A DNA stretch of 53,484 nt from Patescibacteria group bacterium. Its GTDB lineage: Bacteria > Patescibacteriota > Patescibacteriia > 2-12-FULL-57-11. The first letter of the stretch is position 1. Every line of letters begins with the position of its first letter. Below are positions 4,116 through 36,180 of the stretch, one piece after another. The notes beneath the pieces are model-generated. The model searched no databases, was not told the origin of the DNA, and worked only from the letters and a program-made list of their open reading frames with translations. The position numbers were made by a program, and so were the translations under genes. The stretch lies in NCBI GenBank assembly GCA_038054875.1, contig JBBUJK010000009.1:1-53484 (forward strand). Direction: 5' to 3'.

Positions 4116-4140
4116 AAAACCGGCCCCAGGGGCCGGTTTT
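4116..4140. terminator. Bidirectional rho-independent terminator between convergent genes
   Basis: AAAACCGGCCCC-A-GGGGCCGGTTTT perfect palindrome with A-run and T-run flanks. Confidence 0.75.
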
Positions 4141-4141
4141 C

Positions 4142-12792: not shown

Positions 12793-12881
12793 GTCATCCT
12801 GAACAGTAGTGAAGGATCCTACCTGTTCATGCAAGGGCTCCAACAAGACCTGGAAGGATTCTTCGCTCCGCTCAGAATGAC
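12793..12881. repeat. Family A hairpin element, copy A1 (GTCATCCTGA..TCAGAATGAC)
   Basis: About 27-nt imperfect inverted arms around a 35-nt centre; homologous to 29459-29549 in the opposite orientation. Confidence 0.7.
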
Positions 12882-12888
12882 AGATGTG

Positions 12889-13537: not shown

Positions 13538-14127
13538 AGGCCAAAACGATTGCGGACGGCCTCAAGCAGGGATGTGCGTGAAGCGGTCACAGAGAAGGTC
13601 GTGATCTGTGGCGCGTCCGCATACACCAATCCTGGAAGGGAAAGAACAACACGTAGCCGGTTGCCAGGGGTCGGTACATCGGACAACGGAATGGACGCCC
13701 GCAGCTCATGGATGAACATGCCCTGCACGATCCGCCCATCGAGATCGTAGACATTTTTGGTCAACAGGCCACCTTCGAAGAAACGGATCTGGCCGCTTCC
13801 CTCCCCGAACTCAACACCGATCCGTGCTGCGCGTGCGACCTCGTCGGGCAGACCGAAGAAGACCGCTTGCACATCGGCAACATCGAAGAACGTCGGCACA
13901 CGGACATCAACATAAAGCGGCTCACCGACGACCGTGCGCGCCGCATCCTGGGTGGGCGGGAGCGTGCGTGTCGGGGGTCCAAAGTCGGACATCTGCTGCG
14001 TCGGACCATGAAGTGACGAGCGCACGAGCCAGTTCTTCGCAAACAACCCATCCGCGGCAAGCAGGCCGAGGATGACGACGGCCCCGAAGACGATACCGAT
14101 CGCGTATTGAGAGCGGGTCGAGATCAT
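13534..14127 (-). CDS. Hypothetical protein with N-terminal membrane anchor
   Basis: 197-aa ORF, N-terminal TM helix (AIGIVFGAVVILGLLAA), 4-nt overlaps with both neighbours. Confidence 0.5.
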   Translation of the reverse strand: MISTRSQYAIGIVFGAVVILGLLAADGLFAKNWLVRSSLHGPTQQMSDFGPPTRTLPPTQDAARTVVGEPLYVDVRVPTFFDVADVQAVFFGLPDEVARAARIGVEFGEGSGQIRFFEGGLLTKNVYDLDGRIVQGMFIHELRASIPLSDVPTPGNRLRVVLSLPGLVYADAPQITTFSVTASRTSLLEAVRNRFGL

Positions 14128-16357: not shown

Positions 16358-18496
16358 ATGTCGCTGAGTTTTCCGAACTATACCACGGCCCTCCTGGCCC
16401 TTCTAGCGCTCAACCTCGCTGGAATCGGACTCGGTATTCCCCTGCTCGCCGCCCCTGCTGCAGCGCTCCTTGTGCTTCTTCAGGCGCTTGCCGTGGGAAC
16501 ATCTGCATTCCCAGCACAAGAATCTGGTCCACGCTGGGCGTACGGACTTACCATGCTCGTTTGCTGGTACGTCGTTGTCGGTGCGGCCGTCTATGCACTT
16601 GGTGACTTATCCGCCTCTGCCGTGTGTACCGTATGGGTGGCCACGAACGCCGGCGCCACAGCACTCGCACTGCGTGCCAAAAAGCTCGTCGTGATTGACC
16701 CTCCCAGCCCTCCCTTCGCAAGGGAGGGAATGATTCGCGCGACGCCGTTGATCGACGTCATCTTGGTTGGTGTGGTCGGCGCGTCCGCGTTTGTCGCGGC
16801 AGTGTTGCTGGCTCTGGGCCGAACGCAGGAAGCAATCCAATCGCCGTGGCAAACGGTCTCCCCCGCCTTCTTCGTTGCATTGTTCGCCGCGGCAGTCGCA
16901 CTCGTTGCGCTGCTCGCCCGCGGTCGGACGCGCGCAGCGCTTCCTGCCGCCGTACTTGTCGCGGCAGTTGCACTCTCCGTTGCGATCACCGTGTACGGCA
17001 TCGGCTATGGGTACGATCCGTTCATTCACCAGAAAGCGGAGGAGACCATTCTTTCGCAGGGCGTCATCCTGCCGAAGACGCCGTACTACCTCGGTCAATA
17101 TGCGCTGGTGACGATTGCCGCGCGCGTTTCACTGCTGCCGTATCTCGCGCTTGACCGCGCACTCGTTCCATTCGGGTTCGCTCTGCTGTTGCCACTCCTC
17201 GCTGCCGCTTTTGCACGAACGCTCCTGTCACGCGCGCCGTGGCGCATCGCCGCGCTCGCGCCGCTGCTCATCCCCTTTAGCGCGTACATCTCCACCACAC
17301 CAACCGGACTGGCCTACCTCTTTGCCGCGCTCGCCGCATTCGGCGCCGCGGCCTGGCGCGCTGAGGCGACCCCCCTTGGTCCCCCCTTGACAAGGGGGGC
17401 TGCCGGAGGGGTTCTCATGCTCGCCGGCACGCTCGCAGCATTGGCCACGCACCCGCTCGTCGGCATTCCCACGGCCGGTCTCGTACTGCTCGCCACGGCG
17501 GACGCAGCGCAAAAAAAATCACGCGTACTGCTCAACGGTCTCGGTACGCTCGTCATCCTTCTCGGTGTTCCTGCAGCGTTCCTCCTCAATGCCGCACGCG
17601 GCGGCACGATCCCTGTGTGGACCCATGCACCATTCGCGGTCCTGCGTTCACTCGTTGACGCCTGGCCGCACTTCGCGCCGACTGGCGAACTTCCGCTCGA
17701 TCTGCCATATCTCTGGCGCGCCGTGCTCCCGGTGCTGCTCGTTGGCGCAGCATGGATTGCCTGGCGCACCGCAAACGAAAAGCATCATGCTGCGCTCAAA
17801 CCACTTGCGATCGCTGCAACGCTGCTGCTTCCGGCCTACGCATTGCTCGGCCTTTTCCGCTTCCCGGAAGCCGGTGATGTCGGGGCAGCCGTGTTCCCCT
17901 TTCGCGCGCGGCTGCTCGAACTGGCCGCCGTGTTCCTCCTGCCCGCTGTCAGTATCGGACTCGTGGCAGCCTACGAAAAACTCGCACGCCTGCCTGCCGG
18001 ACAGGCAGGCGCACCGCTCGCCCGGCTGACCGCCTCCGGCGTCCTCGCAGCGACACTCGTCGCAGCCGTGTACATCTCGTATCCGCGTCTCGACCGCATC
18101 GAACCGTCGAAAGGCTACGCCGTCTCAGCGTCGACCGTGGCCGCCGTGCAGTGGATCGCCCGCGCCTGCCACGGACCGTACGTGGTGCTCGGCAACCAGA
18201 CCGTGGCCGCGGCCGCCATCCGAGAACTCGGCTTCGTCTCCTTCCCCGGCATCCCTTTTGCCTACGCCAACGAATCCGGCGCGCCGGAACTCAACGCGTT
18301 CTTCCTGAAAATGAACAACGCGCCGACACGCGCCACAGCCGTAGAAGCCATGGACGCCAACGGCGTGAACGAACTGTTCTTCGTGGTAAACGACTTCTGG
18401 AAAAACAGCTCCCGCATCGCAGAAGCTGCGACGCGGGAGGCGGATGACGTGATTGAAGTGGATGAATCGGTGACGATCTTCGTCTACCGCCGCTAG
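16358..18496 (+). CDS. Large polytopic membrane protein of unknown family (possible GT-C or polymerase-like)
   Basis: 712 aa, many hydrophobic helices, YGYDPFIHQKAEETI loop, soluble C-terminal domain; contains in-frame family D elements. Confidence 0.6.
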   Translation: MSLSFPNYTTALLALLALNLAGIGLGIPLLAAPAAALLVLLQALAVGTSAFPAQESGPRWAYGLTMLVCWYVVVGAAVYALGDLSASAVCTVWVATNAGATALALRAKKLVVIDPPSPPFAREGMIRATPLIDVILVGVVGASAFVAAVLLALGRTQEAIQSPWQTVSPAFFVALFAAAVALVALLARGRTRAALPAAVLVAAVALSVAITVYGIGYGYDPFIHQKAEETILSQGVILPKTPYYLGQYALVTIAARVSLLPYLALDRALVPFGFALLLPLLAAAFARTLLSRAPWRIAALAPLLIPFSAYISTTPTGLAYLFAALAAFGAAAWRAEATPLGPPLTRGAAGGVLMLAGTLAALATHPLVGIPTAGLVLLATADAAQKKSRVLLNGLGTLVILLGVPAAFLLNAARGGTIPVWTHAPFAVLRSLVDAWPHFAPTGELPLDLPYLWRAVLPVLLVGAAWIAWRTANEKHHAALKPLAIAATLLLPAYALLGLFRFPEAGDVGAAVFPFRARLLELAAVFLLPAVSIGLVAAYEKLARLPAGQAGAPLARLTASGVLAATLVAAVYISYPRLDRIEPSKGYAVSASTVAAVQWIARACHGPYVVLGNQTVAAAAIRELGFVSFPGIPFAYANESGAPELNAFFLKMNNAPTRATAVEAMDANGVNELFFVVNDFWKNSSRIAEAATREADDVIEVDESVTIFVYRR
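16697..16736 (+). repeat. Family D-like degenerate element (GACCCTCCCAGCCCTCCCTTCGCAAGGGAGGG..)
   Basis: CCCTCCCTTCG/CAAGGGAGGG palindrome with the same layout as family D; in frame as DPPSPPFAREGMI. Confidence 0.45.
17368..17414 (+). repeat. Family D palindromic element, copy D1, in frame within a CDS
   Basis: GACCCCCCTTGGTCCCCCCTTGACAAGGGGGGCTGCCGGAGGGGTTC, encodes TPLGPPLTRGAAGGV. Confidence 0.8.
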
Positions 18497-18505
18497 TGTT
18501 CACTT

Positions 18506-18577
18506 GTCATTCCCACGGAAGTGGGAATCCAGAACGACTAGCTGTGTTTTCTGGATCCCCGCGTCCACGGGGATGAC
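18506..18577. repeat. Family A-type hairpin element, copy A2 (GTCATTCCCACGGAAGTGGGAATCCAG..CTGGATCCCCGCGTCCACGGGGATGAC)
   Basis: Inverted arms, each itself a small palindrome; fills the gap between convergent genes. Confidence 0.7.
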
Positions 18578-18579
18578 AA

Positions 18580-20676
18580 TCAGACCTTCTTTCCTGAGGC
18601 CGTCCAGTGCCACGCCAGGTATTTCCCACCCGGCAGACGGAAGACGAACTCGTCGAAATACACGCACGCCTTTTCGAGCCACAGCGGCACGGCAAGGTGC
18701 TTTTTTGTTTTGAAGAGACGCGTGAAAAACCCCAGCGCGTAGTGGAGGAAACCGGCAGTGAACCACATCGGCTCGATGCGCACTTCGCTGAAATCGGATT
18801 CGATAAACAAGGCGCGCAGCTCGCCGCGCCAAAAGCCGCTGTGTTCCTCGTCGGCGACTGACTTGTCCGTGCGCTTGCCGAGGACAAACTCGAGGACGGG
18901 CTTCAACAGATTGATGAGACCGAAGTACAGCCGGTGCGGTTCCACGGCCGCGACGAAACGCGCCCCGGGAGCGAGCACGCGGCGGACTTCGCCCAAGACG
19001 ACGCGCGGATCTTCGGCATGATGGAGCGAAGCGGTCATCCAGGCACCGGCGAAGGCACCGTCGGCAACCGGAATGTGCTCGGCGTCCATGGTCGCGGCCA
19101 TGAAGCGTCCAGCACCTTCGGGAACCGCGGACAAAAGGCGTGCCGCACCTTCCACCGCGCCTTTGGAAATATCTGTTTCAACAACATGCATGCCGAGCTT
19201 CAGCGCCTCTGCAGCATCCTCTCCGCTGCCGCCGGCAAGCTCCAAGAGCCAACCGTCGGGTGCGACAGGGCGCAGATGGCGGAAGATGCGCTGGTGGTAG
19301 AAACGGTTACGGAACGCGTTCAGTTGATGCACGTCGGCGGCGTCGTGCGTGGCATGGTCGTGGTAGTGCGCCTCCTCGCGCTTGAATGCGGAAAGATCCT
19401 TGGGTAGCAAATCGAGGACCCCTCCGGCTTCCCCCCTTGCCAAGGGGGGACCAAGGGGGGTCGAGGAAACGAGCGCCAGCACCTGGCGTGCGTACTCGGA
19501 CGGACTGAGCAACGGCGGCAGCTTCTGCCAGCGCAGCGCAGCGCGACGCGCAGAATCAGACGCAGTGCGCACGGCGAACACGAACGCTGCGGAGTCGCCC
19601 GAGGCGAAGCGCCAGCCAGTTTCTCCGGAGACGACGTACTCCGGAATGCCGCCGACGTCAGCGACGACGACCGGCACGTGGCGCGCGGCCGCTTCAAAAA
19701 TCACGAGCGGTGCGTTCTCCAAACAGCGCGACGGCACGATCAGCGCATCGGCATGCTGCCAACGCTCCTCCTTGGCGGCGCCGTCGAGCGGTCCATGGAC
19801 GCGAATACGGGGATCGCGCGCGGCCAGCGCTTCGAGCGTGGCACGGTCACCGCCTGCACCGACGATGTCCAGGGTCCATTCGGCTTGTAGGGGCGCGGTT
19901 TTCGCGCCCGGGCGGGATGACCCCGCCCCTACGTCGACATTCACTAGTGTTTCCGCCGCCCACAACGCGCCCTTATGCGGTTCCAACTGCCCGATGAACA
20001 ACATGCGGAACGGTTGACCATGTAGGGGCGGGTATTCCCCGCCCGGGCGCGGGATACGCGCCCCTACCGCGACGACGTCCACAGGATTCGGAATCACGGC
20101 TTGGCGACTGCCAGAAAAAATACGCTGCATGCCAAGAAGCTTCTGCAACCATGCGCTCGGAAAAACTACCGCCTCAGGATTCCCCCAGCGACGGCGCGAC
20201 AGTGCAGACCAGATGCGGTTGCCGATGCGGTCGGCACGCTCGCCCGGGCGAAGCAGGCTGGGCTCAACCGGTTCAAAATCATGCGCGATGTGGACATGCG
20301 GTTGCGGCAGTGTCCGCAATGCGCGCGGCAACGGCCCGCCGAGACCTTTGATGTTCGCGGTGATGATCAGATCGGGACGAAGCGCACGGACACGCGCCAT
20401 GACTGCCACGGTCTGGCGATGGTCCACGAGTTCGGCGACGTTCCAACGGACGCGCGCCGCAAAGGGCTTCGCCAGGACGTCGCCAATCCAGGCGCGGCGT
20501 ACGGCAAGTCGATGAACGGCAACGCCGTCGACAATGTCTTCAGCCGCGCTGCGTGCCGTGGTCACGACATGCGGCTCGTGTCCGAGCGCACGCAACCCCT
20601 GGGCCAAAAGAGCGGTGGCGCGTTCGGCGCCGCCGCCGTCGGGCGGATACATGCCGGTCAAAAGGACGATTCTCAT
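18580..20676 (-). CDS. Fusion protein: N-terminal GT1 (GT4-type) glycosyltransferase plus C-terminal class I SAM methyltransferase
   Basis: ORF 18580..20784 trimmed to ATG 20676 (MRIVLLTGMYPPDGGGAERAT; ATGA overlap). GT1: FIGQLEPHKG, ENAPLVIFEAAARHVPVV. MT: LLELAGGSGEDA. Carries three in-frame palindromic elements. Confidence 0.8.
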   Translation of the reverse strand: MRIVLLTGMYPPDGGGAERATALLAQGLRALGHEPHVVTTARSAAEDIVDGVAVHRLAVRRAWIGDVLAKPFAARVRWNVAELVDHRQTVAVMARVRALRPDLIITANIKGLGGPLPRALRTLPQPHVHIAHDFEPVEPSLLRPGERADRIGNRIWSALSRRRWGNPEAVVFPSAWLQKLLGMQRIFSGSRQAVIPNPVDVVAVGARIPRPGGEYPPLHGQPFRMLFIGQLEPHKGALWAAETLVNVDVGAGSSRPGAKTAPLQAEWTLDIVGAGGDRATLEALAARDPRIRVHGPLDGAAKEERWQHADALIVPSRCLENAPLVIFEAAARHVPVVVADVGGIPEYVVSGETGWRFASGDSAAFVFAVRTASDSARRAALRWQKLPPLLSPSEYARQVLALVSSTPLGPPLARGEAGGVLDLLPKDLSAFKREEAHYHDHATHDAADVHQLNAFRNRFYHQRIFRHLRPVAPDGWLLELAGGSGEDAAEALKLGMHVVETDISKGAVEGAARLLSAVPEGAGRFMAATMDAEHIPVADGAFAGAWMTASLHHAEDPRVVLGEVRRVLAPGARFVAAVEPHRLYFGLINLLKPVLEFVLGKRTDKSVADEEHSGFWRGELRALFIESDFSEVRIEPMWFTAGFLHYALGFFTRLFKTKKHLAVPLWLEKACVYFDEFVFRLPGGKYLAWHWTASGKKV
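19416..19462 (-). repeat. Family D palindromic element, copy D2, in frame at the GT1/MT junction
   Basis: Minus strand GACCCCCCTTGGTCCCCCCTTGGCAAGGGGGGAAGCCGGAGGGGTCC, encodes TPLGPPLARGEAGGV. Confidence 0.8.
19887..19932. repeat. Family C double-hairpin element, copy C1, in frame within the GT1 domain
   Basis: GTAG-GGGCGCGgttttCGCGCCC-GGGCGGGatgacCCCGCCC-CTAC; read as VGAGSSRPGAKTAPL. Confidence 0.8.
20032..20077. repeat. Family C double-hairpin element, copy C2 (inverted relative to C1), in frame within the GT1 domain
   Basis: GTAG-GGGCGGGtattcCCCGCCC-GGGCGCGggataCGCGCCC-CTAC; read as VGARIPRPGGEYPPL. Confidence 0.8.
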
Positions 20677-21836
20677 GGGGTGTACATGATCCCGCGCACC
20701 ACAACATCGAGCCGCGCCGGCAATCCGGAGAGCGCATATTGTTCGAGCGCAATCGTCCGAGCGACCGCGCCCATGCGGCTGCATTCCGCCGGATCAGCGG
20801 CCAGACGTGCCAATGCCGCGGCAAGTTCCTGCACGTTCGCAGGTTCAACGAGCAATCCGGTTCGGCCTTCTTCAACGACCGTGCGCACGCCAGGCAGGCG
20901 CGACGCGACGACCGCTTTGCCGGAGGCCATGGCTTCGAGCACGACGAGTCCGAACGCTTCGGAACGGTCGATTGACGACAGCACCGTGAAATCGGCCAGG
21001 CGGTAAAAATCCGGCAGCTCATCGGAGAGCGCGTTGCCCACGAACCGCACCTGCTCGACCACGCCGAGCGTGTGCGCCATGGCTTCATAGCGCGAACGCA
21101 GATCCCCTTCTCCCACAACGACGAGACCAAGCGGCGTGGCGGTACGATTCACATGCGCCACAGCGCGCAGAAGCACTTCGAGTCCTTTGAAGTAGTGGGC
21201 GGTGTCGAGACCACCGACGAAGAGCGCGAGCGGGAGATTTGGATCGAGCTTCAGACGTTCGCGGAGCGCGACAGACGCCGATCCAGGCGCGAAGCGGTCG
21301 GTATCGACTGCCGGTGCCAATTCCACGAGTCGGTCGGCTGGCGTGCGTCCCCAGAGCCCCGCGAGCGTGCCAGTCATCGCGTAATCGAAGGTGGAGACGA
21401 TCAGCCGATCGGCACTTTTCACGATCCACGGCAGGAACAATCGCGTGTACATGGTGAACAACGAATCGCGCGGCGGCTGGCCGACGAGGTCCATGTGATA
21501 ATAGACGGCGAGTCGGCCGCCGGTGGCGCGCATACGACGGGCCAGTGCGACCGCTTCGGCTCCGCCCAAAAATGGATAGTGTAAAAAGATCAGGTCCGCG
21601 CCGCGCACCGCCGTGTAGAGCTGCGGCAGGAATGCGGCGTTGCCAATGGAGAGCGGCGCGCGCAAAAAGTGAACGGTGTACCCTTCCCGCTCTTCGACGC
21701 GCGAGGCGCCCTCGATCGGGGTGAACACGTCCACCTGGTGTCCCAGACGCGCCAATGCGGCCGCTTGTTGAGCGGCGAGGTTCCCCATGCCGCCGCGATA
21801 CGGCGGGAACGTGGAAACGACAACGGCAATACGCAT
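20673..21836 (-). CDS. Glycosyltransferase family 1 (GT4-type)
   Basis: MRIAVVVSTFPPYRGGMGN, SEAFGLVVLEAMASGKAVVAS (E-x7-E region). Confidence 0.85.
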   Translation of the reverse strand: MRIAVVVSTFPPYRGGMGNLAAQQAAALARLGHQVDVFTPIEGASRVEEREGYTVHFLRAPLSIGNAAFLPQLYTAVRGADLIFLHYPFLGGAEAVALARRMRATGGRLAVYYHMDLVGQPPRDSLFTMYTRLFLPWIVKSADRLIVSTFDYAMTGTLAGLWGRTPADRLVELAPAVDTDRFAPGSASVALRERLKLDPNLPLALFVGGLDTAHYFKGLEVLLRAVAHVNRTATPLGLVVVGEGDLRSRYEAMAHTLGVVEQVRFVGNALSDELPDFYRLADFTVLSSIDRSEAFGLVVLEAMASGKAVVASRLPGVRTVVEEGRTGLLVEPANVQELAAALARLAADPAECSRMGAVARTIALEQYALSGLPARLDVVVRGIMYTP

Positions 21837-21928
21837 ATGCCCTGCCGAACCCTCAAGAATTGAAATAAAACCGTCAGGGCAGGCAGCTGCACCCTACGCG
21901 AAAATGACAGACCAAGCAATCCTCCGCC

Positions 21929-23023
21929 CTACCACCACAACACCAGCCGACAAAGTTTCCAATACAGCGTCATCACGGGATTTCCGATATACCGCAGCAC
22001 TGGAGAATCAACTTCCTGATAGGCAACGACCGTCGCAAAATCACGCGTGATGATGCGGTCCGATATCTTGCGCAGTTTCTGGTTGCGACGGCGGACGACG
22101 AAAAGCGCGCGCCAGTGCGCCGACTTGAGGAAATAGGCATAAACGCGAAATTTCTCTTTCCCCCACCCCTTGAGCAGCGCGAACGGCAACATGCCGATTT
22201 CGAGCGCCAAAAGCATCGGTGCGATGAGCACAAATGTTGCAGCGCTGTAACACATCAACATCACCAAAAAGCGATTGCGCTCCATCCAATAGTATTTGGT
22301 GATACTCCGCGAAAATTCGTACTTGTGCCAGATGACGGCATCCGGAACAAAACGCAATTTCCAACCGGCCAACCGCAACCGCCAGGACAGTTCAACGTCC
22401 TCGTGGTATGCAAACAACGCTTCATCAAGCATACCAATCGCGCGCACCGCCGCAGCGTTCAACACCATGGCCGCGCCGGAGACGGACACGAGATCACGCG
22501 ATTTCATGAACGGCGCAAGACGCGGATCATCGCGTTTCAGACGATAGCCGTCGCAATAGCTCATGCCAAGGTAGTGGATGGCGTTGCCGACGGAATTCAC
22601 GCGATCGGTGTCGGGGTGCAGCACCATGAGCGGCTGCATGCAGCCAACCTGCGGATCGCCCGTGGCGGCCGCCAGCTTCGTCAGCGTTTCCGGCGCGATT
22701 TCGGTGTCCGGATTCAGGAGGAACAGCCAGTCGTAGCCCTCAGCCAGCGCCTGCACCATGCAGTCGTTGTTGCCGCCGGCAAAGCCGCGGTTCGAGGGGC
22801 TCTTGATGAGCGCGCATGAGAAACCGGATTTCGTCGCCGTGCGGTTCGCATCGAGCAAACCGCGCACGACGCCGTATGAGTCGTCACCCGGCGCGCCGTT
22901 ATCGAGCATCCAAATCTTCACCGCGTCCTTGGGGTACGCCATCTTGTCGAGCGACGCGAACAACGCCGGCAGGAACCGGGCGTGTCCGTACGAAACCACG
23001 ATGATGGCGAACTTCTGCGTCAC
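21929..23023 (-). CDS. Glycosyltransferase family 2 (rhamnosyltransferase-like)
   Basis: ORF 21929..23257 trimmed to GTG 23023 (VTQKFAIIVVSYG; GTGA overlap with DUF2304 stop); NRGFAGGNN, LNPD and YHEDVELSWR motifs. Confidence 0.8.
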   Translation of the reverse strand: MTQKFAIIVVSYGHARFLPALFASLDKMAYPKDAVKIWMLDNGAPGDDSYGVVRGLLDANRTATKSGFSCALIKSPSNRGFAGGNNDCMVQALAEGYDWLFLLNPDTEIAPETLTKLAAATGDPQVGCMQPLMVLHPDTDRVNSVGNAIHYLGMSYCDGYRLKRDDPRLAPFMKSRDLVSVSGAAMVLNAAAVRAIGMLDEALFAYHEDVELSWRLRLAGWKLRFVPDAVIWHKYEFSRSITKYYWMERNRFLVMLMCYSAATFVLIAPMLLALEIGMLPFALLKGWGKEKFRVYAYFLKSAHWRALFVVRRRNQKLRKISDRIITRDFATVVAYQEVDSPVLRYIGNPVMTLYWKLCRLVLWW

Positions 23024-23379
23024 ACCTGATTCCCCGAGCCGCGTCGAGGGGCATCCTTTAACAAGGCAATTTCGCGCACCAACGTGGTGATCTCCCGTTC
23101 CTGCCGCTCCATGCGCAGGTACACGCGGAAGACGAGGATGACGAGCGCGAGCACCGCCAAAAACAACAGCGCGTCGACACCCCTCCCGATGCCTAGGAAG
23201 CGCGCGAAGACGTCCGTTTGCTGCGGCAGCTGCACGACGACCGCAATGGCCAACCACAAAAGCGTCCAGCCGGCGAAGAGGCCCGTCGGCAGTTCACGAC
23301 GGCGCCAACGCAGGAAGGCGCCTGCAACGGCGAGCAATCCGATGATCGGGACGGAAATTTTAACGAGGAGAAGGTTCAT
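23020..23379 (-). CDS. DUF2304-like small membrane protein (commonly partnered with GT2)
   Basis: 119 aa, three TM helices then a charged C-terminal helix (RMERQEREITTLVREIALLK); coupled to the downstream GT2. Confidence 0.6.
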   Translation of the reverse strand: MNLLLVKISVPIIGLLAVAGAFLRWRRRELPTGLFAGWTLLWLAIAVVVQLPQQTDVFARFLGIGRGVDALLFLAVLALVILVFRVYLRMERQEREITTLVREIALLKDAPRRGSGNQV

Positions 23380-23382
23380 ACT

Positions 23383-26073
23383 TCAGCCTTTTGGTTTCTC
23401 ACCAATATGGACGCGGACCAATTCAGTAAAGCTTTTCACGGGATACTTTTCCCACACCTCTTCGCGGACGTACAGCATCTCATACCGGAAACGTTTCTGC
23501 GCTGCCGTCGCGTCCGCGCACCATTGCGCGAGCCGGGCAATCTTTCCGGGGTCCTCCACGTCTTCACGGCCTTTCGTCTCGATCACATAGATCGTCTTCG
23601 GATCGACTTTGACGAGAAAGTCAGGCACGTACCCGGCAATTCCACCTTCTGCCGTCCGGTACTCGATCTTGAATCCGAGCGCATCGTGGTTCTTCACGTA
23701 GGAGACGATGTCCTCACAGCCGTCAAGGAAGCGCGCGAATGCATACTCGAGGGAGCTGTCGCCGACGAAACGGCCAAGGATGCTTTTCTTTGAAAGAAGA
23801 TACTCCTGCTGTTTGGCGACGAACGGCTTCATGTCGCTCGCCCTGATGTACCGGCGTACCTCCACGGCGCCTCCCGTATCTTCAACGGTGAGTCTATTAA
23901 TCTCGCGTTTGAACGTCTCGATGATGGCCTTCGTCGCTTCCGGCTCGGAGAGGTTCTTCACGACGGCCGGTTCGTCCAGATGGACGGTTTCGCCGAACAG
24001 ACGCGTCCCGACGAAGTCACGCAGCTTCCCGAAGAGGATGTCGTACCCCGTTACGAGATGCATGTCCTGCATGATCTCCCGCGCGAAGAAACCGAGCGCG
24101 TTTCGCCAATCGGGCGCCTCGCCCTCGACCCACGCGATCTCGTGCGACACTTCCCCACTAACGACCTTACGGAAGACGATCTTCTCCAGATCCTTCTTCG
24201 CATAGCTGCGCCGGTCGATGGAAGAGAACGCGAACGCAGTGACGTCGAGATGCTCCAGGTTCCGATGTTCCTGCCGTAAACGCGGCGTGAGCACCGGCAC
24301 CTCGATGTCGAGCAGGTCGAGATTCTTCTTTTCGTTCTTCTTATCGACCTCGACGATCACCGGGCTCACCGCCCGGTTCTCCATATCCATGCGCCGGTAT
24401 GTGAGTTCGACGCCCTCGCGCTTGATGTGTTCCACGAACTCCATGAATGCCGGCGTACCAATTACGGCAACCTCCTCGGGCACACCCTGGCCGAAGTACA
24501 TGAGACGCAAACCGCGGCCGAGCGTCTGCTCGGGCAGAATGTTGCTCTTCGATGAATAGGCGCGCAGACCGACGATAGTCGTGACGTTCCGGACGTCCCA
24601 ACCCTCTTTGAGCATCAGCACGGAAACGACGGCGCGATACTTACTTTCGTTGCTGTCGATGTCGTTCGCTTCGTCGCGCAGCCGACGAAGTTCCTCATCG
24701 TCCTTCTTTCCCCGGCCTTCCACGATGTCGCCGGACTTGTTGGTGTGGATCGTGAGCACGCGACCGCGCAAGTCGGGATAGCGCAGTTCGAGATGCTTGG
24801 CGACGTCGTCGCAGTTCGTGGTGTCGTCGGTCATGACGAAGAGAATCGCTTTTTTGCCGACCTTCGCGTGTTCCTCAAAGCTCTTTTGCCATTCGAGATA
24901 ACCGACGTGCAGAAAATGCTGATACCGTTCAATGAACTGCGCGGACGTTTCCTCCTTGAGTTTCGCCTGGCTGGCGGCATCGGGAAGCACGGGATGCTTG
25001 ACCACGCCCTGCTGGATGGCCTCGACGAGCGGATAGTCGCAGACCACCTGCGGGAACAGCCTCCCCTTCTCGCTGCGAGGCGTTGCCGAGACGTCAATCT
25101 GCAACGAAAGTTCCTTCCCCTTGAGCTTGAGCTGCGCGGCGATGTCCGTGATCGACTCGAACCAGACCTTTTCGTCGTTGATGTGGTGAGCCTCGTCGTT
25201 CAACACCATCAGCTCGTCGATGTCGCGGACGATGTCGCCGAGATCCACGCGGCTGTCGTTCGTCTTTGCGACCGGCTTTGGTCCCAGGAAATACTCCGTG
25301 GACAACTTTTTTATCTCGACGTCGCCGGCATACACGCGATGAATGTTCGTCAAAAAGATGTTGCCGTACTTCGAGACCATGCCGACACTGTCCTGCAAGT
25401 GCAGGCGCGGCTGGAAGTCGGTGTGCCAATCACGACCCTCGAAGCCGTCGTCCGGCAACATCGGATCGTCGAAGAACAGCTTCAGACCTTCAAAGTCGTG
25501 CTTGATACGTTCGAGGACGATGATGTTCGGCGTTATTACCAGAAAGTTCTTGGAGAGCGCGGAGTCGGTTTCGTACGTCCGGTGGAAATAGCTCCAGACG
25601 ATGAGTAGCGCGAGCACCTTCGTCTTGCCGGAACCTGTGGCCATCTTGAGCACGAGACGCGGCCAGTTCTCGGCGAACAAGCCCGTCGCCAGGCGACCGG
25701 TCGCGTCGAAGTGCAGCAGGTCGACCGGATTGCGAACGCCCACGACCTCGTGCAGATAGATGACGGTTTCAACCGCTTCGCGCTGCGCGAAGTAATACCG
25801 AAACGGCCGCGACTCGCCGTCGGCGCCCGTAACGACATGGCTCTCGATGAACCACCAGCGCAGCAGCGTCTTCGACGTCACGCTCGCACCGGCATAGCCG
25901 CTCTCGCGCCACTCCTTCACCTTCCGCCGTACGGTCGGCACGAGCGGCGGCAACAAATCTTCCCCGCGCTTCCCACGGTCTTCTTCATCGACAGGAACCC
26001 ACCGGACCTCGGGGTCCAGGATGGCATACGGATCTTTGGGAAAATCGGGGTGGAGGGACATGGGTGTGGACAA
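23383..26073 (-). CDS. res: Type III restriction enzyme, Res subunit (SF2 helicase plus PD-ExK nuclease)
   Basis: Walker A MATGSGKTKV, DEAH box LNDEAHHI, motif VI QTLGRGLR, C-terminal nuclease motif VPDFLVKV..YVIETKG. Confidence 0.9.
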   Translation of the reverse strand: MSTPMSLHPDFPKDPYAILDPEVRWVPVDEEDRGKRGEDLLPPLVPTVRRKVKEWRESGYAGASVTSKTLLRWWFIESHVVTGADGESRPFRYYFAQREAVETVIYLHEVVGVRNPVDLLHFDATGRLATGLFAENWPRLVLKMATGSGKTKVLALLIVWSYFHRTYETDSALSKNFLVITPNIIVLERIKHDFEGLKLFFDDPMLPDDGFEGRDWHTDFQPRLHLQDSVGMVSKYGNIFLTNIHRVYAGDVEIKKLSTEYFLGPKPVAKTNDSRVDLGDIVRDIDELMVLNDEAHHINDEKVWFESITDIAAQLKLKGKELSLQIDVSATPRSEKGRLFPQVVCDYPLVEAIQQGVVKHPVLPDAASQAKLKEETSAQFIERYQHFLHVGYLEWQKSFEEHAKVGKKAILFVMTDDTTNCDDVAKHLELRYPDLRGRVLTIHTNKSGDIVEGRGKKDDEELRRLRDEANDIDSNESKYRAVVSVLMLKEGWDVRNVTTIVGLRAYSSKSNILPEQTLGRGLRLMYFGQGVPEEVAVIGTPAFMEFVEHIKREGVELTYRRMDMENRAVSPVIVEVDKKNEKKNLDLLDIEVPVLTPRLRQEHRNLEHLDVTAFAFSSIDRRSYAKKDLEKIVFRKVVSGEVSHEIAWVEGEAPDWRNALGFFAREIMQDMHLVTGYDILFGKLRDFVGTRLFGETVHLDEPAVVKNLSEPEATKAIIETFKREINRLTVEDTGGAVEVRRYIRASDMKPFVAKQQEYLLSKKSILGRFVGDSSLEYAFARFLDGCEDIVSYVKNHDALGFKIEYRTAEGGIAGYVPDFLVKVDPKTIYVIETKGREDVEDPGKIARLAQWCADATAAQKRFRYEMLYVREEVWEKYPVKSFTELVRVHIGEKPKG

Positions 26074-26084
26074 CTATTGACTTT

Positions 26085-26657
26085 TTATTCTTTTCCCAGT
26101 ATATTCTTCGTATCACTACGAAGAAGACCCCTGTCGGGCTCGTCCCGACCGGGGGCTTTTTCATTTTTGGCCTCCAAGATTTGCTGCTGATCACCGATGT
26201 AGGCAATAGGCGCATTTGTGCGTTTGAGCAGCACCGAACACTTTTTTGCTGCTGCCGGGGAGAGAATGATTTTCAGACATTTCTTTTCCTGCCAAAACTT
26301 CACGAGCGGCGTGTAGTCACCATCACTCGTGACGAGAACCGCCTGCGCGCAACCGCCTTCGTATGTATCCCGCATGGCCTGCGTCACGAGATCGGCATCG
26401 CAGTTACCCTTCGGCTTGCCGTTACCGTCGTAGATGACTTCTTTAAAAACCAAGGTAAAACCCGCCTCCTGAAGAGAGGTGTAAAGATCTTTGTATTTGG
26501 GGATCAGACCGATAAAAAGATACGCGCGACTCACGCCGTATTTATCGGAGAGCCACACGCGAAAACGCGCATAATCCAAAACCCAACCCTGCTCCTTCAC
26601 GCCCTGATGCAGGTTCGCGCCATCTATATAAGCGATGATGCCAGCCGCTGGTTTCAT
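26085..26657 (-). CDS. NYN-domain (LabA/DUF88-like, PIN-related) predicted nuclease
   Basis: Conserved acidic residues YIDGANL, GNCDADLV, VTSDGDYTPLV; the last ~25 codons overlap two hairpins. Confidence 0.75.
   Translation of the reverse strand: MKPAAGIIAYIDGANLHQGVKEQGWVLDYARFRVWLSDKYGVSRAYLFIGLIPKYKDLYTSLQEAGFTLVFKEVIYDGNGKPKGNCDADLVTQAMRDTYEGGCAQAVLVTSDGDYTPLVKFWQEKKCLKIILSPAAAKKCSVLLKRTNAPIAYIGDQQQILEAKNEKAPGRDEPDRGLLRSDTKNILGKE
26104..26170. other. Tandem stem-loops in the 3' end of the NYN gene, just upstream of res
   Basis: TTCTTCGTA-tcac-TACGAAGAA (perfect 9 bp) and CCCCTGTCGGG-ctcgt-CCCGACCGGGG (one mismatch), followed on the plus strand by TTTTTCATTTTT. Confidence 0.6.
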
Positions 26658-26711
26658 AGATTGGCCAGAACGGCGTACGGATCTATCGGGAAGTCAGGAT
26701 GGAGGTACATA

Positions 26712-27248
26712 TCAACGGCGCCGTTTGGGTATAATTCGTCGCGATTTTATAATGTTTCTCACTTCTTTAGTGTGGATTTTTTGACGGCTCGCCACGACCT
26801 TCTCACCGATAATGACAACAACCGCGAGTGCTGCTAACCCCCATCTCCACGGAATCGACATCGCCTCAATCCTCTGATTGAGAGAAGCCACGGCGTGGCT
26901 TATCGGCCAACCGTTGTCTGCCGTTTTTGGCTGAAGGTTAATTACCAGGTCGCAATCATTGCCGCTCTGGGCACCGCTATACGTGTAACACGTTCCCAGC
27001 CCTATATGTGTAGCAAGTGTTCGCTCCTGGAAGTCTGGATCATCTCTTGGCCAAAGTTCGTACAGCAAGGAAAAACTACCGTCTTCCCTACTAATCTGTC
27101 TGATCCTCCGTGCTTTCAAATGGCTTAGCGCTTCCAGAGTTTCTTTCTCTCTGGGAAACAAAAAAGATAAGTCATTGATAAGCCAACCAGCTGCAGCTAG
27201 TAGAATGCTTACTGTAAAAAGAACACTTCTAGCTACCCTCATAGTCAT
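26712..27248 (-). CDS. Hypothetical two-TM membrane protein inside the R-M operon
   Basis: 178 aa, N-terminal and C-terminal hydrophobic helices, Cys-containing middle domain, basic tail KSRRIIPKRRR; ATGA overlap with mod stop; lower GC than the locus. Confidence 0.55.
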   Translation of the reverse strand: MTMRVARSVLFTVSILLAAAGWLINDLSFLFPREKETLEALSHLKARRIRQISREDGSFSLLYELWPRDDPDFQERTLATHIGLGTCYTYSGAQSGNDCDLVINLQPKTADNGWPISHAVASLNQRIEAMSIPWRWGLAALAVVVIIGEKVVASRQKIHTKEVRNIIKSRRIIPKRRR

Positions 27249-29389
27249 ACCTTCACCTCAATCACCTTCGTCGTGTCGTTCCCGAAGATGTCGATGACCT
27301 TTACGGCGACCAGACGACGACCTTTGGGAACTTCCTTGGCAGCAGAGACCAATTCCAAGTCGCGGTTCTTCTTGGTACGGAATGACTGCCACTCGTTCTC
27401 GAACACGTAGCGGCCAGTCCACTCATCATTCACGGTCTCCTTCTTGCTCTCATAGTCGAAGTCCACGGCCCAGTAGTCGATCCAGTCCGACCATTTTTTA
27501 GTGAGCACCTCGCGCTTGACGATGTCGCTCTCCTTGTCCTTCGACACTTTCACGACGTTGCCGTTCTCAATGACGATGTGCGCCCCGCCCGGCTTGAGCT
27601 TGTCCTCGGCGCGCTCGATGCCGTCCTGCTCGTAGAAGACGCTGAAGTCGCGCAGCTCCAGCGCGACGGTCTTGCCCTTCACGATCGGTCGCACCTCGAC
27701 GAACGCCAGATCGTAGAACTTCACCTCGCCTTTCTCGATAGCGCGCTGGTCGAACACGTCGCGCGGGATGAGCTTGGGCTGGATGTCCACGCCCTGCTTG
27801 CGCAGCTCGGCAAAGTCGATGCCCATCTCAAAGTCAAAGCCGAGCACGTCGGCCTTGGAAATGCCCTTCTCGCGGCACTCGTCCACGATGGCGTTGATGA
27901 ATGCCTCGCTGACCGGCGTCTCCAACGGCCCAACCGCTACGAGCCGATCTCGCCTCTTGCCGGAGAAAGCCATAAACGACTCCACGCGCTCAGCTTTGTA
28001 CGCCTGCAGAATCAGGTCCTCGAACTCACGCTCCTTCTGTTGTCGAATCTGCTCGCGCTCTTCGGCACGAATATCCCCATCCACCCGCACGAACTCCTGA
28101 CGCTCGTACACGCCGAGGTTGAGAATCTCAAACGCGCGATACGGCTTGCCGTCTTTCTTGAGCTGCCGTTGGACATCAATCAACCGCTTGCGGGATGTGT
28201 GAATCGCATAGCGCCCCAGATCAGCGCCGATCCACTTGCGACCCAGCTTTTCCGCGACTGCTACGGTGGTGCCGGAGCCGCAAAAAAAATCGGCAACAAG
28301 CTCGCCTTCTTTCGAAGTTAATTGGATTACACGTTCAAGTAGTGATTCCGGTTTTTGAGTTGGGTATCCTTCACTCTCCTTCGCTTTTATACCAGTAGAC
28401 ACTGAAATATCGGTCCATATTGAACCCACCGTATCAACGCCTTCGTCAAGATAGTACTTCTTGTACTTCGTTCCAACGGACGTTACATAAATCAAGCCTT
28501 GCTGTTCCATTCTTTCAATAGACTTCTCAGAGTAATCACCTAGAGTAACAAGTTTAAACCTACGACCAGTACCTTCTTCAATCTTATTGTAAACAGCCTT
28601 TTGCTTTTCACTTAAATCTCTATATGGTTGCGTAAAACAATATGAATCAGACTTTGTATAGAACAAAATTGAATCATACTCTTTTGGCAATTGTTGTGAG
28701 ATGCGCTTTGCACCTTTTCCAGCCGGATCTCGTTGCCAAATCACCTCATTATGAAAATAATTACTACCAAATACTTCGCTCATTACCAGCTTAACTTCAC
28801 TGTTAAGCCTCCAATCGCACTGCACATAAATGCTCCCATCCTCCGCAAGCAAATCGCGCATCAGGAGCAAGCGCTCATAGATCATCGACAGGAAGCTGTC
28901 CGCGCCGCGGCCCCAGGTGTCGCGGTAGGCGATCTCTTCGATGACGCTCGGCTCCTTGGTGAACTCCTCGCCGCCGATCTCGATGTCGATGGAGAAGTCC
29001 GCGCCCACGTCGAACGGCGGGTCGATGTAGATGAGCTTGATGCCGCCCTGCGCCTCGATCTCCTTGCGCAGCGGCCCGTGCAGGAGCGAGGACATGATGA
29101 GCTTGTTGTCGCCCCAGATGAGCTTGTTCGTCCAGCCCTTCAACTGCCGGCCGGACGTGTCGAACAGCGACTGCTGCAGTTTGATCTCCTTCTCGCTGCG
29201 CGGTTCGTCGATGTGTTCGATGGTCTGGAACGGCAATACCGCGTTCGTCACCTCGTCCGACTTGCCGTCCCACACCAGCTCCACCTGCCGCTTGTCGCCG
29301 AACAACAAAAACCGGTACTTCTCCGGCAGAGGTTTCCCCTTCTGGAGCAGCTCGGTGATGTCGCGGATTTCGTTGGGAGAGAGGCGCAT
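27245..29389 (-). CDS. mod: Type III R-M DNA methyltransferase, Mod subunit (N6-adenine/N4-cytosine, beta class)
   Basis: Motif IV IYIDPPFDVG precedes motif I FFCGSGTTVAVAEKLGRKWIGADL; track start 29398 is TTG, ATG 29389 preferred (MRLSPNEI). Confidence 0.9.
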   Translation of the reverse strand: MRLSPNEIRDITELLQKGKPLPEKYRFLLFGDKRQVELVWDGKSDEVTNAVLPFQTIEHIDEPRSEKEIKLQQSLFDTSGRQLKGWTNKLIWGDNKLIMSSLLHGPLRKEIEAQGGIKLIYIDPPFDVGADFSIDIEIGGEEFTKEPSVIEEIAYRDTWGRGADSFLSMIYERLLLMRDLLAEDGSIYVQCDWRLNSEVKLVMSEVFGSNYFHNEVIWQRDPAGKGAKRISQQLPKEYDSILFYTKSDSYCFTQPYRDLSEKQKAVYNKIEEGTGRRFKLVTLGDYSEKSIERMEQQGLIYVTSVGTKYKKYYLDEGVDTVGSIWTDISVSTGIKAKESEGYPTQKPESLLERVIQLTSKEGELVADFFCGSGTTVAVAEKLGRKWIGADLGRYAIHTSRKRLIDVQRQLKKDGKPYRAFEILNLGVYERQEFVRVDGDIRAEEREQIRQQKEREFEDLILQAYKAERVESFMAFSGKRRDRLVAVGPLETPVSEAFINAIVDECREKGISKADVLGFDFEMGIDFAELRKQGVDIQPKLIPRDVFDQRAIEKGEVKFYDLAFVEVRPIVKGKTVALELRDFSVFYEQDGIERAEDKLKPGGAHIVIENGNVVKVSKDKESDIVKREVLTKKWSDWIDYWAVDFDYESKKETVNDEWTGRYVFENEWQSFRTKKNRDLELVSAAKEVPKGRRLVAVKVIDIFGNDTTKVIEVKV

Positions 29390-29407
29390 GATGACCAATC
29401 TTCCAAC

Positions 29408-29440
29408 AAAAAAACGCCCGCGTCAACGGGTGTTTTTTAT
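29408..29440. terminator. Bidirectional terminator hairpin immediately upstream of mod
   Basis: AAAAAAA-ACGCCCG-cgtcaa-CGGGTGT-TTTTTAT (one G-U pair); on the minus strand followed by TTTTTTTG. Confidence 0.65.
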
Positions 29441-29458
29441 TTGTCCATCCGTCATTGT

Positions 29459-29549
29459 GTCATTCTGAGGCGGCTGCCGAAGAATCCTTCCGGTCCTTGT
29501 CAGAGCTCTTGCGTGAACTGGCAGGATCCTTCGCTCCGCTCAGGATGAC
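29459..29549. repeat. Family A hairpin element, copy A3 (inverted relative to A1)
   Basis: GTCATTCTGAGGCGGCTGCCGAAGAATCC..GGATCCTTCGCTCCGCTCAGGATGAC; the centre is the reverse complement of the A1 centre with scattered substitutions. Confidence 0.7.
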
Positions 29550-29560
29550 AGAGCGGGGTC

Positions 29561-30271
29561 TCATCGCAGTGCACGTCTTACTATCAAACGGCCCAACGTC
29601 TTCAATCCCATCACAAAACTCTGCCCTTTGGAAAGCGAGTAGGTCGTGTAGACGCTCTTGATCGGCACTTCCACGAGCCGGAGCTTGTGCCGGAAAATCT
29701 CGGCGACGATCTCGGATGAGACTTCCATGCGGTCGGTGCGGATCTGTATCTGCTCGGCGGCTGCGCGGGAAAAAGCGCGCAGTCCGGACTGCGAATCGGA
29801 GACGTGTGCGCCAAAGAGTGCGGCGGTCACGACGTTGCCGATGCGATTGGCAACGCGACGGACGAATGGCATCCCCTCTTTGGTGAGCATGCGACTGCCG
29901 ATCACGACGTCCGCACGTCCTTCCCGAATCGGCGCGAGCATGGCGGCAACGTCTTCCGGCCGGTGCTGTCCGTCCGCATCGAACGTGAGCACGATGTCGG
30001 CGCCGTCCGCGAGCGCGGCACGGATGCCGGTGGCAATTGCCGCGCCGAGCCCGCGGTTCAAAACGTGACGGATCACGTGGACACCCCCACCAGTTTCCCC
30101 CCTTGTCAAGGGGGGACCAAGGGGGGTGACGACACGCGCAACATCGGCCGTACTGTCCGTCGATCCGTCATCCACGACGATGATCGCATCGACGCGCGAC
30201 AAAAGACCATCGAGGACCTCCCCGATGGCCTGTGCTTCATTCCATGCGGGAACGACGGCGACAACCTTCAT
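29561..30271 (-). CDS. Glycosyltransferase family 2 (polyprenyl-phosphate glycosyltransferase, DPM1/GtrB-like)
   Basis: MKVVAVVPAWNEAQAI, VVDDGSTDST, NRGLGAAIATG, TFDADGQH; carries family D copy D3. Confidence 0.85.
   Translation of the reverse strand: MKVVAVVPAWNEAQAIGEVLDGLLSRVDAIIVVDDGSTDSTADVARVVTPLGPPLTRGETGGGVHVIRHVLNRGLGAAIATGIRAALADGADIVLTFDADGQHRPEDVAAMLAPIREGRADVVIGSRMLTKEGMPFVRRVANRIGNVVTAALFGAHVSDSQSGLRAFSRAAAEQIQIRTDRMEVSSEIVAEIFRHKLRLVEVPIKSVYTTYSLSKGQSFVMGLKTLGRLIVRRALR
30080..30128 (-). repeat. Family D palindromic element, copy D3, in frame within the GT2 gene
   Basis: Minus strand CACCCCCCTTGGTCCCCCCTTGACAAGGGGGGAAACTGGTGGGGGTGTC, encodes TPLGPPLTRGETGGGV. Confidence 0.8.
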
Positions 30272-31291: not shown

Positions 31292-31756
31292 TCACGTAAT
31301 GTCTACCGGCCCAGTATACGGGCCACCGGGCGCCGGGGACAAGCCGTCCCTCGACCCGGCTCGGGACAGGCGGAACGTCCAAAGCTTTTGGCCGGCAAAG
31401 TTCCAAACCGCGGTCATGACTAAGGCAATGACCTTGGCGACAAGATCATAGAGGCCGAATTGCGAGATACCGAGATACAACACGAGCGAGTTGATCGCCA
31501 AACCGATCAATGTCACGGTCAGAAACTTCGGGAATTGTGCGCGGTGCGAGCCGTGGTTGACGCGAAAGGTGACGCGCCGGTGCATCGTGTACGCCCAAGC
31601 CACGGCCACGACGAACGAGCAGACGTTGGCCAGGAGGTACTGCTCACGAAAGAACGGCAGGCTGCGCGTCAGGGCAAAAAACCCCAACCAATCAACGGCC
31701 GTGGCGGACAAACCCACCAACCCGTAGCGCACGGTCTGCCAAAACAAGGCGCGCAT
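31292..31756 (-). CDS. GtrA-family membrane protein
   Basis: RYGLVGLSATAVDWLGFF and WNFAGQKLWTFR motifs, four TM helices; ATG 31756 preferred over the TTG at 31768. Confidence 0.75.
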   Translation of the reverse strand: MRALFWQTVRYGLVGLSATAVDWLGFFALTRSLPFFREQYLLANVCSFVVAVAWAYTMHRRVTFRVNHGSHRAQFPKFLTVTLIGLAINSLVLYLGISQFGLYDLVAKVIALVMTAVWNFAGQKLWTFRLSRAGSRDGLSPAPGGPYTGPVDIT

Positions 31757-36148: not shown

Positions 36149-36180
36149 AAAACGTCCCCGCTCAGCGGGGACGTTTTTGT
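36149..36180. terminator. Bidirectional rho-independent terminator between convergent genes
   Basis: AAAACGTCCCCGC-tca-GCGGGGACGTTTTTGTTT. Confidence 0.75.

Follow-up and report, generated by a model that had tools for sequence, protein, structure and literature searches.

A nested palindromic DNA repeat carried in frame inside unrelated genes of a Patescibacteria bacterium

Contig JBBUJK010000009.1 of a Patescibacteria group bacterium (assembly GCA_038054875.1) was analysed over its positions 1 to 53,484, a stretch referred to below as the window, to which all positions apply unless another contig is named. It contains five copies of a GC-rich nested-palindrome repeat of 44-45 nt that we designate family D. 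With a probability of about 0.8 we regard family D as a self-copying DNA repeat that is tolerated in frame, and not as a protein motif. Its best reading is that of a non-autonomous selfish hairpin resembling the repetitive extragenic palindromic sequences (REPs) and the Rickettsia palindromic elements (RPEs), i.e. a new family of a known kind in a new host lineage, the candidate phyla radiation (CPR). The first-pass annotation of the same DNA had likewise preferred a mobile or recombinogenic DNA repeat to a protein motif, and this preference is borne out by empty sites in orthologues, by a copy at a different site in one relative (L006) and by identity at the nucleotide level.

Family D copies and their host genes

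The 30-mer CCCCCCTTGGTCCCCCCTTGNCAAGGGGGG occurs in the window three times without a single mismatch, at 17370-17399 (+), 19431-19460 (-) and 30097-30126 (-), as compared with an expectation of 0.00 from 100 dinucleotide-preserving shuffles of the window. The three strings described in the first-pass annotation could thus be retrieved, off by only 1-2 nt in position; its estimate of "three, possibly four" sites had to be raised to five members, the copy at 15119-15075 (-) having been missed. No further family-D members were found in the other ~38 kb of the window by pattern and nhmmer searches. The five copies are the following:

15075-15119 (-): decayed copy in the PMT_2-like GT-C protein, TSFGSPVSRRVAGGV; same orientation and phase, hairpin largely lost
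16697-16736 (+): older diverged copy at site 1 of the membrane protein, DPPSPPFAREGM; hairpin CCCTCCCTTCGCAAGGGAGGG at 16708-16728
17369-17413 (+): intact copy at site 2 of the membrane protein, codons 338-352, TPLGPPLTRGAAGGV; inner hairpin at 17381-17399
19417-19461 (-): intact copy in the GT4/GT1-methyltransferase linker, TPLGPPLARGEAGGV; inner hairpin at 19431-19449
30083-30127 (-): intact copy in the GT2 protein, TPLGPPLTRGETGGG(V); inner hairpin at 30097-30115

They are distributed over four host genes:

16358-18496 (+): host gene 1, polytopic membrane protein of 712 aa without Pfam match, carrying sites 1 and 2
18580-20676 (-): host gene 2, fusion of GT4/GT1 and class I methyltransferase (GT1-MT), 698 aa, identified by Pfam, start placed by orthologues
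29561-30271 (-): host gene 3, GT2 polyprenyl-phosphate glycosyltransferase-like protein of 236 aa, identified by Pfam and homologues
14124-15758 (-): host gene 4, PMT_2-like GT-C membrane glycosyltransferase of 544 aa, start conserved in orthologues

The open reading frame (ORF) of the GT1-MT fusion spans 18580-20784 (-), and its orthologues place the real start at 20676. All five copies are intragenic and share one orientation and one codon phase within four intact genes. The common orientation and reading frame relative to the host had been proposed before, and the initial ACC of all three intact units indeed occupies codon position 1 in the respective host ORF. The copies are in frame, free of stop codons and a multiple of three in length, which speaks against a byp-like, intein or intron element; the sequence 3' of the inserts is conserved with orthologues. 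Two of the five members are diverged. The PMT_2-like copy was recovered with 74% identity in the repeat search (as family D2) and with E=5e-11 by nhmmer, using a hidden Markov model (HMM) built from the intact copies, and has a fold z-score of -0.2. The degenerate relative at 16697-16736, already suspected in the first-pass annotation, proved to be real; it shares orientation and phase, and its orthologous copy in L021 is recognised by the intact-copy HMM with E=7e-4.

Filled and empty sites among relatives

The syntenic loci of six relatives (L006, L008, L020, L021, L026 and L027) were compared site by site. At the position of the insert, five GT2 orthologues of 222 aa (82-90% identity) are short of exactly 14 residues, and at the DNA level the window exceeds L020, L008 and L006 by 42 nt; a 97%-identical protein from L009, an independent ENA assembly, retains the insert with one substitution. 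The PMT_2-like gene of the window is 36 nt (12 codons) longer than its equivalents in L021, L020 and L006. Site 2 of the membrane protein is empty in L020, P0123, P0124 and L006, which read ALPP(H) at this position and are 33 nt (11 codons) shorter. The empty orthologous sites that the first-pass annotation had proposed to look for hence exist for the GT2, the PMT_2-like and the membrane protein gene.

The membrane protein documents different states of the element. Site 2 harbors identical 45-mers in the window and L021, and the L008 copy exhibits an in-frame internal deletion of 18 nt (ACCTCCT joined to GGGGGGCTGCTGGAGGGGT). A third site, ~45 codons downstream of site 2, is occupied in L006 only, and this copy is identical to the site-2 copy of the window in 38 of 38 nt, the two proteins being just ~55% identical. 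At site 1, the hairpin reads CCCTCCCTTCGCAAGGGAGGG in the window and L008 and TCCCCCCTTCGCAAGGGGGGA in L021, differing by two base pairs of which both sides have changed; the right half alone is left in L020 and nothing in L006. The copy in the GT1-MT linker is common to L016, where the loop base is A and not G, and to L020 (~87% identical), and L008 holds a variant hairpin in another phase; in this linker the element is of older date. No family-D copies were detected in the syntenic region of the more distant L026 and L027. Taken from the sequence comparison, the distribution shows at least six independent insertion sites that were filled in several waves, and the copies decay by point mutation and in-frame deletion.

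A conserved protein motif would be expected, as the first-pass annotation had argued, to show the same peptide with diverged codons in distant lineages, and no such lineage was found. Orthologues at 52-90% identity do not have the peptide, nor do the solved homologues, and a search with a 46-aa concatenation of the three peptides against a set of 5.8 billion proteins yielded no candidate sharing three 5-residue words.

GC-rich, homopolymer-rich sequence can be error-prone, which might make one think of an assembly or sequencing artefact, or of a chance low-complexity match. The same inserts recur at the same sites in independent assemblies from different pipelines and samples, namely ENA (Hainich; L009, L016), Logan (L021) and NCBI (L020, L006), the reading frames are intact in every copy, and the shuffle expectation argues against chance. 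We consider this explanation, of which the artefact part had been raised in the first-pass annotation, to be practically negligible.

Anatomy and maintenance of the hairpin

Three parts make up the element: the left arm is ACCCCCCTTGG, the inner hairpin reads TCCCCCCTTG-N-CAAGGGGGG, and ..GCCGGAGGGGT forms the right arm. Its CPR form comprises 44-45 nt, and the core conserved across phyla 30-31 nt. RNA folding reproduced the 9+9 inner palindrome nested in an outer ACCCC/GGGGT pairing that had been recognised in the first-pass annotation, with the outer arms pairing over 5-7 bp only. The folding energies lie between -32 and -35.5 kcal/mol, and the z-scores relative to shuffles that fold well themselves between -1.7 and -3.5. 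The central loop base is A, G, C or T depending on the copy and differs even between the window and the near-identical L016; such a free position fits a hairpin loop and not a selected codon.

Covariation was evaluated on 11 distinct inner hairpins. In this alignment, which was partly gathered by palindrome search and is to that extent biased towards paired stems, 94.9% of the stem cells are paired and four of nine pairs have changed on both sides; none of 500 shuffles reached the observed values, and slid controls were lower. This search bias does not touch the two pairs with compensated changes at site 1 of the membrane protein, an orthologous site. The alignment suggests that compensated changes tend to preserve the hairpin.

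Position within the host proteins

Structure modelling was applied to the GT2 host only. In the AlphaFold (AF2) model, which has a mean predicted local distance difference test (pLDDT) score of 77, the stretch that separates helix 40-47 from strand 63-67 contains the insert, modelled as coil at pLDDT <50, and the solved structures of ArnC (9bhc) and dolichol-phosphate mannose synthase (DPMS; 5mlz) show a gap of 10 residues there. The loop position suggested in the first-pass annotation is hence in agreement with the model as well as with the solved homologues. The sites in the membrane protein and the PMT_2-like protein correspond to short charged loops between hydrophobic segments.

The GT1-MT copy sits between the Pfam domains, exactly at the domain junction. 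Beyond the clade, glycosyltransferase and methyltransferase occur as proteins of their own, and stand-alone methyltransferases start with a CxxC..CxxC zinc ribbon. The fusion protein of L006 contains such a ribbon (CPSC...CLSC; L006 ~14650-14770) in its linker in place of the element, which together with the stand-alone enzymes indicates that the element replaced a zinc ribbon at the junction. A role of the element in creating the fusion was rejected, because L006 possesses the fusion with the zinc ribbon and without the element.

Occurrence of the core in other phyla

A Phycisphaera metagenome-assembled genome (MAG) contains exact matches to the 30-mer in two contigs and an Elainellaceae cyanobacterial MAG in a single contig; two Planctomycetaceae MAGs match it exactly as well, and so do ten metagenome contigs, one of which (L016) is the Hainich relative of the window. 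The family-D core is hence not specific to its source genome and is common to several phyla. What stays constant in non-CPR genomes is confined to the left arm and the inner hairpin. Both intergenic and intragenic copies exist there, and part of the copies are combined with a second hairpin, CCCTCCTTGGCAAGGAGGG, into composite arrays. At least three copies lie in frame in real genes of Planctomycetota MAGs or unbinned contigs, where the opposite strand is read. The copy in RecG encodes PPLARGDQGG within ~34 extra residues relative to the E. coli protein, an insert that holds a second repeat type too; that in PolX encodes SPLGKGGPRGV and constitutes an 8-residue insert in the linker before the PHP domain in comparison with the PolX of T. 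thermophilus (3au2); and SPLAKGGPRGV is found in a DNA methylase-like ORF of 1,134 aa.

Viral contigs contained no exact match to the 30-mer. The same architecture, GACCCCCC-spacer-CCCCCCTTGNCAAGGGGGG-spacer-GGGGGGT, occurs in them between portal, terminase and capsid genes, and Pfam analysis of the ORFs beside these related hairpins returned phage portal, terminase and capsid proteins only and no transposase. The identity of 30/30 nt across phyla and of 38/38 nt in L006 implies either a conserved source copy or recent horizontal spread, neither of which was observed; horizontal transfer would account for the identity across phyla.

As a side observation, hairpins of the same superfamily (CTCCCCCTTGCGAAGGGGGAG, CCCTCCTTGGCAAGGAGGG and CCCCCCCTAGTAAGGGGGG) were located at L021 513-533, L011 1420-1438, L013 105-123 and L003 6043-6078 and 6187-6220. 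They are found in relatives as well as in non-CPR contigs, and some are arrayed with the family-D core in a mosaic reminiscent of bacterial interspersed mosaic elements (BIMEs).

The retention of the stem by compensated changes, including those at one orthologous site, raises the question of a role for the host at the RNA or DNA level. The hairpin could have been exapted for mRNA stabilisation, for a translation pause between domains, as a protein-binding site or as a recombination site for the in-frame swap of gene halves. The location of copies at domain or helix boundaries and the intergenic position of the related hairpins in phage structural modules are compatible with such a role, as is the inverted pair 17368(+)/19416(-), whose 50 nt are 92% complementary and whose members have a common phase within a pair of convergent genes. 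Close relatives, however, manage without the inserts, as their empty sites document. Decay is moreover visible in the lost stem of the PMT_2-like copy, the 18-nt deletion in L008 and the remaining half of site 1 in L020. No Rfam family reaches its threshold, and a recombinant junction was not present in any contig. A host function is thus improbable as the reason for the persistence of the hairpin.

A single frame and orientation

All six independent CPR sites exhibit one orientation and one codon phase, a coincidence with a chance of ~1e-4. Avoidance of stop codons was rejected as the cause of this bias, since the element can be read through in five of its six frames. The other phyla read it in two other frames.

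The uniform frame at the six CPR sites would also be expected if a Pro/Gly-rich linker or recognition peptide, TPLGPPL(T/A)RG, had been selected as amino acids, and the hosts are all cell-envelope glycosylation proteins. Against such a protein-level module stand the identity at the nucleotide level without synonymous variation, the orthologues that lack the peptide and the insert of the GT2 protein, which is modelled as a disordered coil. Furthermore, the codon of the loop base varies freely (T, A, P, S), and other phyla read the opposite strand as PPLARGDQGG or SPLAKGGPRGV. Selection for the peptide itself is very improbable.

The frame might instead be a property of the insertion itself. In the most far-reaching version, the insertion step depends mechanistically on how the target gene is oriented and on its codon phase, the 30-nt hairpin travels horizontally among CPR, Planctomycetota, cyanobacteria and phages, and its copies serve as portable in-frame linkers for domain exchange. 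One shared phase in every copy would allow them to act as such linkers. The replacement of a zinc ribbon at a domain junction points to domain exchange at linkers, and so does the inverted pair, because the two convergent genes would trade their C-terminal halves in frame upon inversion between 17369 and 19461. We regard this scenario as unlikely. With six events, a phase-coupled mechanism cannot be told apart from a target preference or from selection for whichever peptide disrupts least.

Origin and survival of the copies

If family D is a selfish hairpin, an existing copy would serve as the source of new ones in the chromosome. ORFs take up ~92% of the window, and in a genome of such coding density most landings would hit genes. 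Only those that are in frame, free of stop codons and placed in loops or inter-domain linkers would survive purifying selection, a logic that has been proposed for RPEs and for intragenic REPs (PMC10969869, PMC3733652). The survivors would be translated as a 15-residue Pro/Gly-rich coil, a peptide that would have no function of its own, and would later decay by point mutation and in-frame deletion, the hairpin being retained via compensated changes. The preferred, if tentative, candidate for the copying enzyme, proposed by analogy with REPs, is a single-strand transposase of the HUH/Y1 type that might act in trans on the extruded hairpin.

Several observations weigh against family D as a selfish repeat. 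The insertions are unclean: filled sites lack 9-12 nt of ancestral sequence, and the filled GT1-MT junction lacks the zinc ribbon altogether, which fits replacement or template switching better than a cut-and-paste event. The flanks of the six sites display no consistent target-site duplication; a direct CCTCG on either side is confined to the GT1-MT copy. Pfam detected neither a transposase nor an HUH domain in the major ORFs of the window, and none was present beside the copies examined at other loci; the ends and flanks of all copies bear no consistent GTAG/CGTC tag, and no intergenic "master" copy was seen. The bias in frame is not obviously predicted by simple post-insertion filtering, and the strict frame and the cross-phylum identity are left unexplained by a selfish hairpin. 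To these points have to be added the search bias of the covariation alignment and the limited sampling of the relatives, which are covered as 20-kb pieces only. A consistent target motif was likewise not found across the sites.

The main rival for the copying step dispenses with a transposase. Template switching, microhomology-mediated copying or ectopic gene conversion could generate the copies if a stalled fork copies the hairpin and thereby replaces a short stretch of the target. The missing duplication, the loss of ancestral sequence and the hints of microhomology fit this mechanism at least as well. Possible microhomologies exist at the GT1-MT junction, where the element ends in GGAGGGGTCCTCG and L006 has GACGGCGTCCTCG, and at site 2 of the membrane protein, where the element and the empty L020 allele have CTGCCG in common; they are short, however, and one is out of codon phase. 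Subtypes of the right arm are common to different sites, a pattern that suggests conversion between copies, and the same genes contain single-copy perfect palindromic insertions, for example at 17987-18011. The absence of a transposase from the window is in line with this alternative, but the gene could sit elsewhere in the genome, and template switching ill explains 30/30 identical nt across phyla or 38/38 between proteins of ~55% identity. We regard copying without a transposase as possible but rather doubtful.

Comparison with known repeat families

The parallel to RPEs drawn in the first-pass annotation is correct with respect to behaviour and fails with respect to family membership, for which length and host genus differ. 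RPEs are palindromic, reside in frame in unrelated working genes of a small gene-dense genome and encode a family-specific peptide, which is predicted to be placed compatibly with the protein fold (Ogata et al. 2000 via PMC10969869, PMC3733652); they have a length of ~100-150 bp and are confined to Rickettsia (PMC10969869, PMC3733652). Family D is also found in frame in unrelated intact genes, encodes a peptide specific to the family and lies at a fold-compatible position (the GT2 loop), but it measures 44-45 nt with a 30-nt core, resides in Patescibacteria and has a core common to other phyla; a relation in sequence to RPEs is not expected.

REPs are GC-rich stem-loops of 20-40 bp that are tagged with GTAG/CGTC and mostly extragenic (Di Nocera et al. 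2013, PMC3733652; Bertels & Rainey 2011, PMC3116915). Some of them lie wholly within ORFs, often of DNA-repair genes, and encode 10-30 extra residues (PMC3733652). The best hypothesis for their mobilisation is an HUH tyrosine transposase acting on hairpin single-stranded DNA (PMC3733652; PMC3116915). Family D resembles them as a short GC-rich palindrome with multiple dispersed copies, and its non-CPR hosts RecG, PolX and DNA methylase are of the DNA-repair type. In contrast to REPs and REPINs, it starts with ACCCCCC, ends with GGGGT and bears no tag, forms a nested double palindrome and is intragenic in five of five window copies; a REP-associated tyrosine transposase (RAYT) gene was not seen in the window.

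Miniature inverted-repeat transposable elements, or MITEs, have a length of 70-300 bp, terminal inverted repeats of 15-30 bp and target-site duplications (PMC10969869). Family D is likewise a short non-autonomous repeat giving in-frame fusions, but it is far shorter and has neither a target-site duplication nor terminal repeats like those of insertion sequences. Another type of element is represented by the small dispersed repeats (SDR) of Nostoc/Anabaena, which Elhai et al. in 2008 are reported to have described as very short mobile repeats of 20-30 nt that can reside inside other repeats and conserved genes. One exact match of the family-D core is located in a cyanobacterial MAG contig, and the likeness to SDR is no more than a lead.

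No Rfam family reached its gathering score for family D. A weak resemblance exists to the whalefall-1 RNA motif, known only from a whale-fall metagenome (Rfam RF01762; Weinberg et al. 2010, PMC2864571): a C/U-rich hairpin, UCUCUCCUUG..GGAGAGAC, is matched by the antisense strand of the GT2 copy (30093-30133, +), which scored 20.6 bits against a gathering threshold of 37. Membership in whalefall-1 was rejected, because the score is sub-threshold, concerns one copy and depends partly on the flank of that copy. The whalefall-1 motif might itself belong to this class of repeated hairpins. A literature search retrieved nothing on palindromic repeats inside CPR genes and nothing for peptide strings such as PPLTKGG or PPLARGE.

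Genome setting and neighbouring repeats

GT2 homologues carry the names Candidatus Uhrbacteria or Patescibacteria, and the closest named relative of the membrane protein is a "Patescibacteria group bacterium"; the host genome is accordingly best described as probably Uhrbacteria-like Patescibacteria. The window has a GC content of ~60% and represents, according to Pfam analysis of its ORFs, one long cell-envelope glycan cluster with GT2, GT4 and GT-C transferases, sugar epimerases, GtrA, Bac_transf and methyltransferases. It additionally encodes a class II ribonucleotide reductase, a MurA-like gene and a type III restriction-modification island (23383-29398), which has its insertion point between the GT2 gene and the glycosyltransferase genes that follow and comprises:

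23383-26073: Res (ResIII), identified by Pfam
26085-26657: NYN-domain gene
27245-29398: Mod (N6_N4_Mtase), identified by Pfam

The island is absent from the syntenic loci of L006, L008, L020 and L026, and in L009 Mod adjoins the GT2 gene. An S8 peptidase/FG-GAP gene contains a 153-nt unit three times in tandem (32153-32531, -; 60-82% identical over 73 nt), and these units probably encode FG-GAP repeats.

A second repeat family consists of REP-like hairpin doublets tagged with GTAG...CTAC at 19887-19939 and 20015-20067 (-), with a further occurrence at 13364-13390. The doublets are translated in frame as VGAGSSRPGAKTAPL and VGARIPRPGGEYPPLH in the GT4/GT1 domain of the GT1-MT gene, whose orthologues are 6-15 residues shorter. 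Related sequences were found at L020 14213-14244, L008 11377-11408 and 14056-14085, and L026 13446-13473, and relatives hold GTAGGGGCGTATNGNNATACGCCCCTAC within the GT1-MT gene and within a GT2. The occurrence of this GTAG-tagged family in the same genes indicates that REP-like elements live in this lineage.

Differences in length between orthologues coincide in part with hairpins. In a scan of the 16 window genes with orthologues, at least four of eight lineage-specific insertions of >=5 aa proved to be strong hairpins. The perfect hairpin at 17987-18011 (+), with a 10-bp stem (CGCCTGCCTGCCGGACAGGCAGGCG), encodes a 7-residue insertion of the membrane protein (LPAGQAG) that is single-copy and restricted to the window; it may be a de novo palindromic insertion by template switching. 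The GtrA-like gene has a window-only insertion of 8 residues, LSRAGSRD, at 31346-31369 (-), which is an imperfect palindrome.

A 74-nt repeat ending in TTCGCTCCGCTCAGAATGACAGA is present at 12808-12884 and 29478-29552, one copy lying directly downstream of the GT2 gene at the edge of the restriction-modification island. A tail similar to its end, TTCTTCGGTGCGCTCAGAATGACGAG, occurs beside the family-D core in RecG of the Phycisphaera MAG (L005 ~4555-4585), and the 74-nt repeat may be a second cross-phylum repeat. Finally, perfect hairpins with 14-bp stems, AGAAAACCGGCCCCAGGGGCCGGTTTTCT and AAAACGTCCCCGCTCAGCGGGGACGTTTT, occupy short intergenic gaps at 4114-4142 (divergent genes) and 36149-36177 (convergent genes). 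With their flanking A- and T-runs they look like ordinary bidirectional terminators, unrelated to family D.

Implications

These CPR organisms are known only from metagenomes. If family D is a selfish hairpin, changes in the length of CPR proteins would be partly driven by selfish hairpin DNA, which affects gene calling, homology modelling and alignment-based phylogeny. It would provide an independent case, after Rickettsia, of reduced gene-dense genomes that tolerate mobile DNA within genes, here with clean pairs of filled and empty alleles. An exact match of 30 nt across phyla is unusual among REP-like repeats, and the strict reading frame poses a concrete puzzle on the mechanism of insertion. 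If horizontal spread is true, the family-D core could trace the exchange of DNA among CPR episymbionts, their neighbours and phages.

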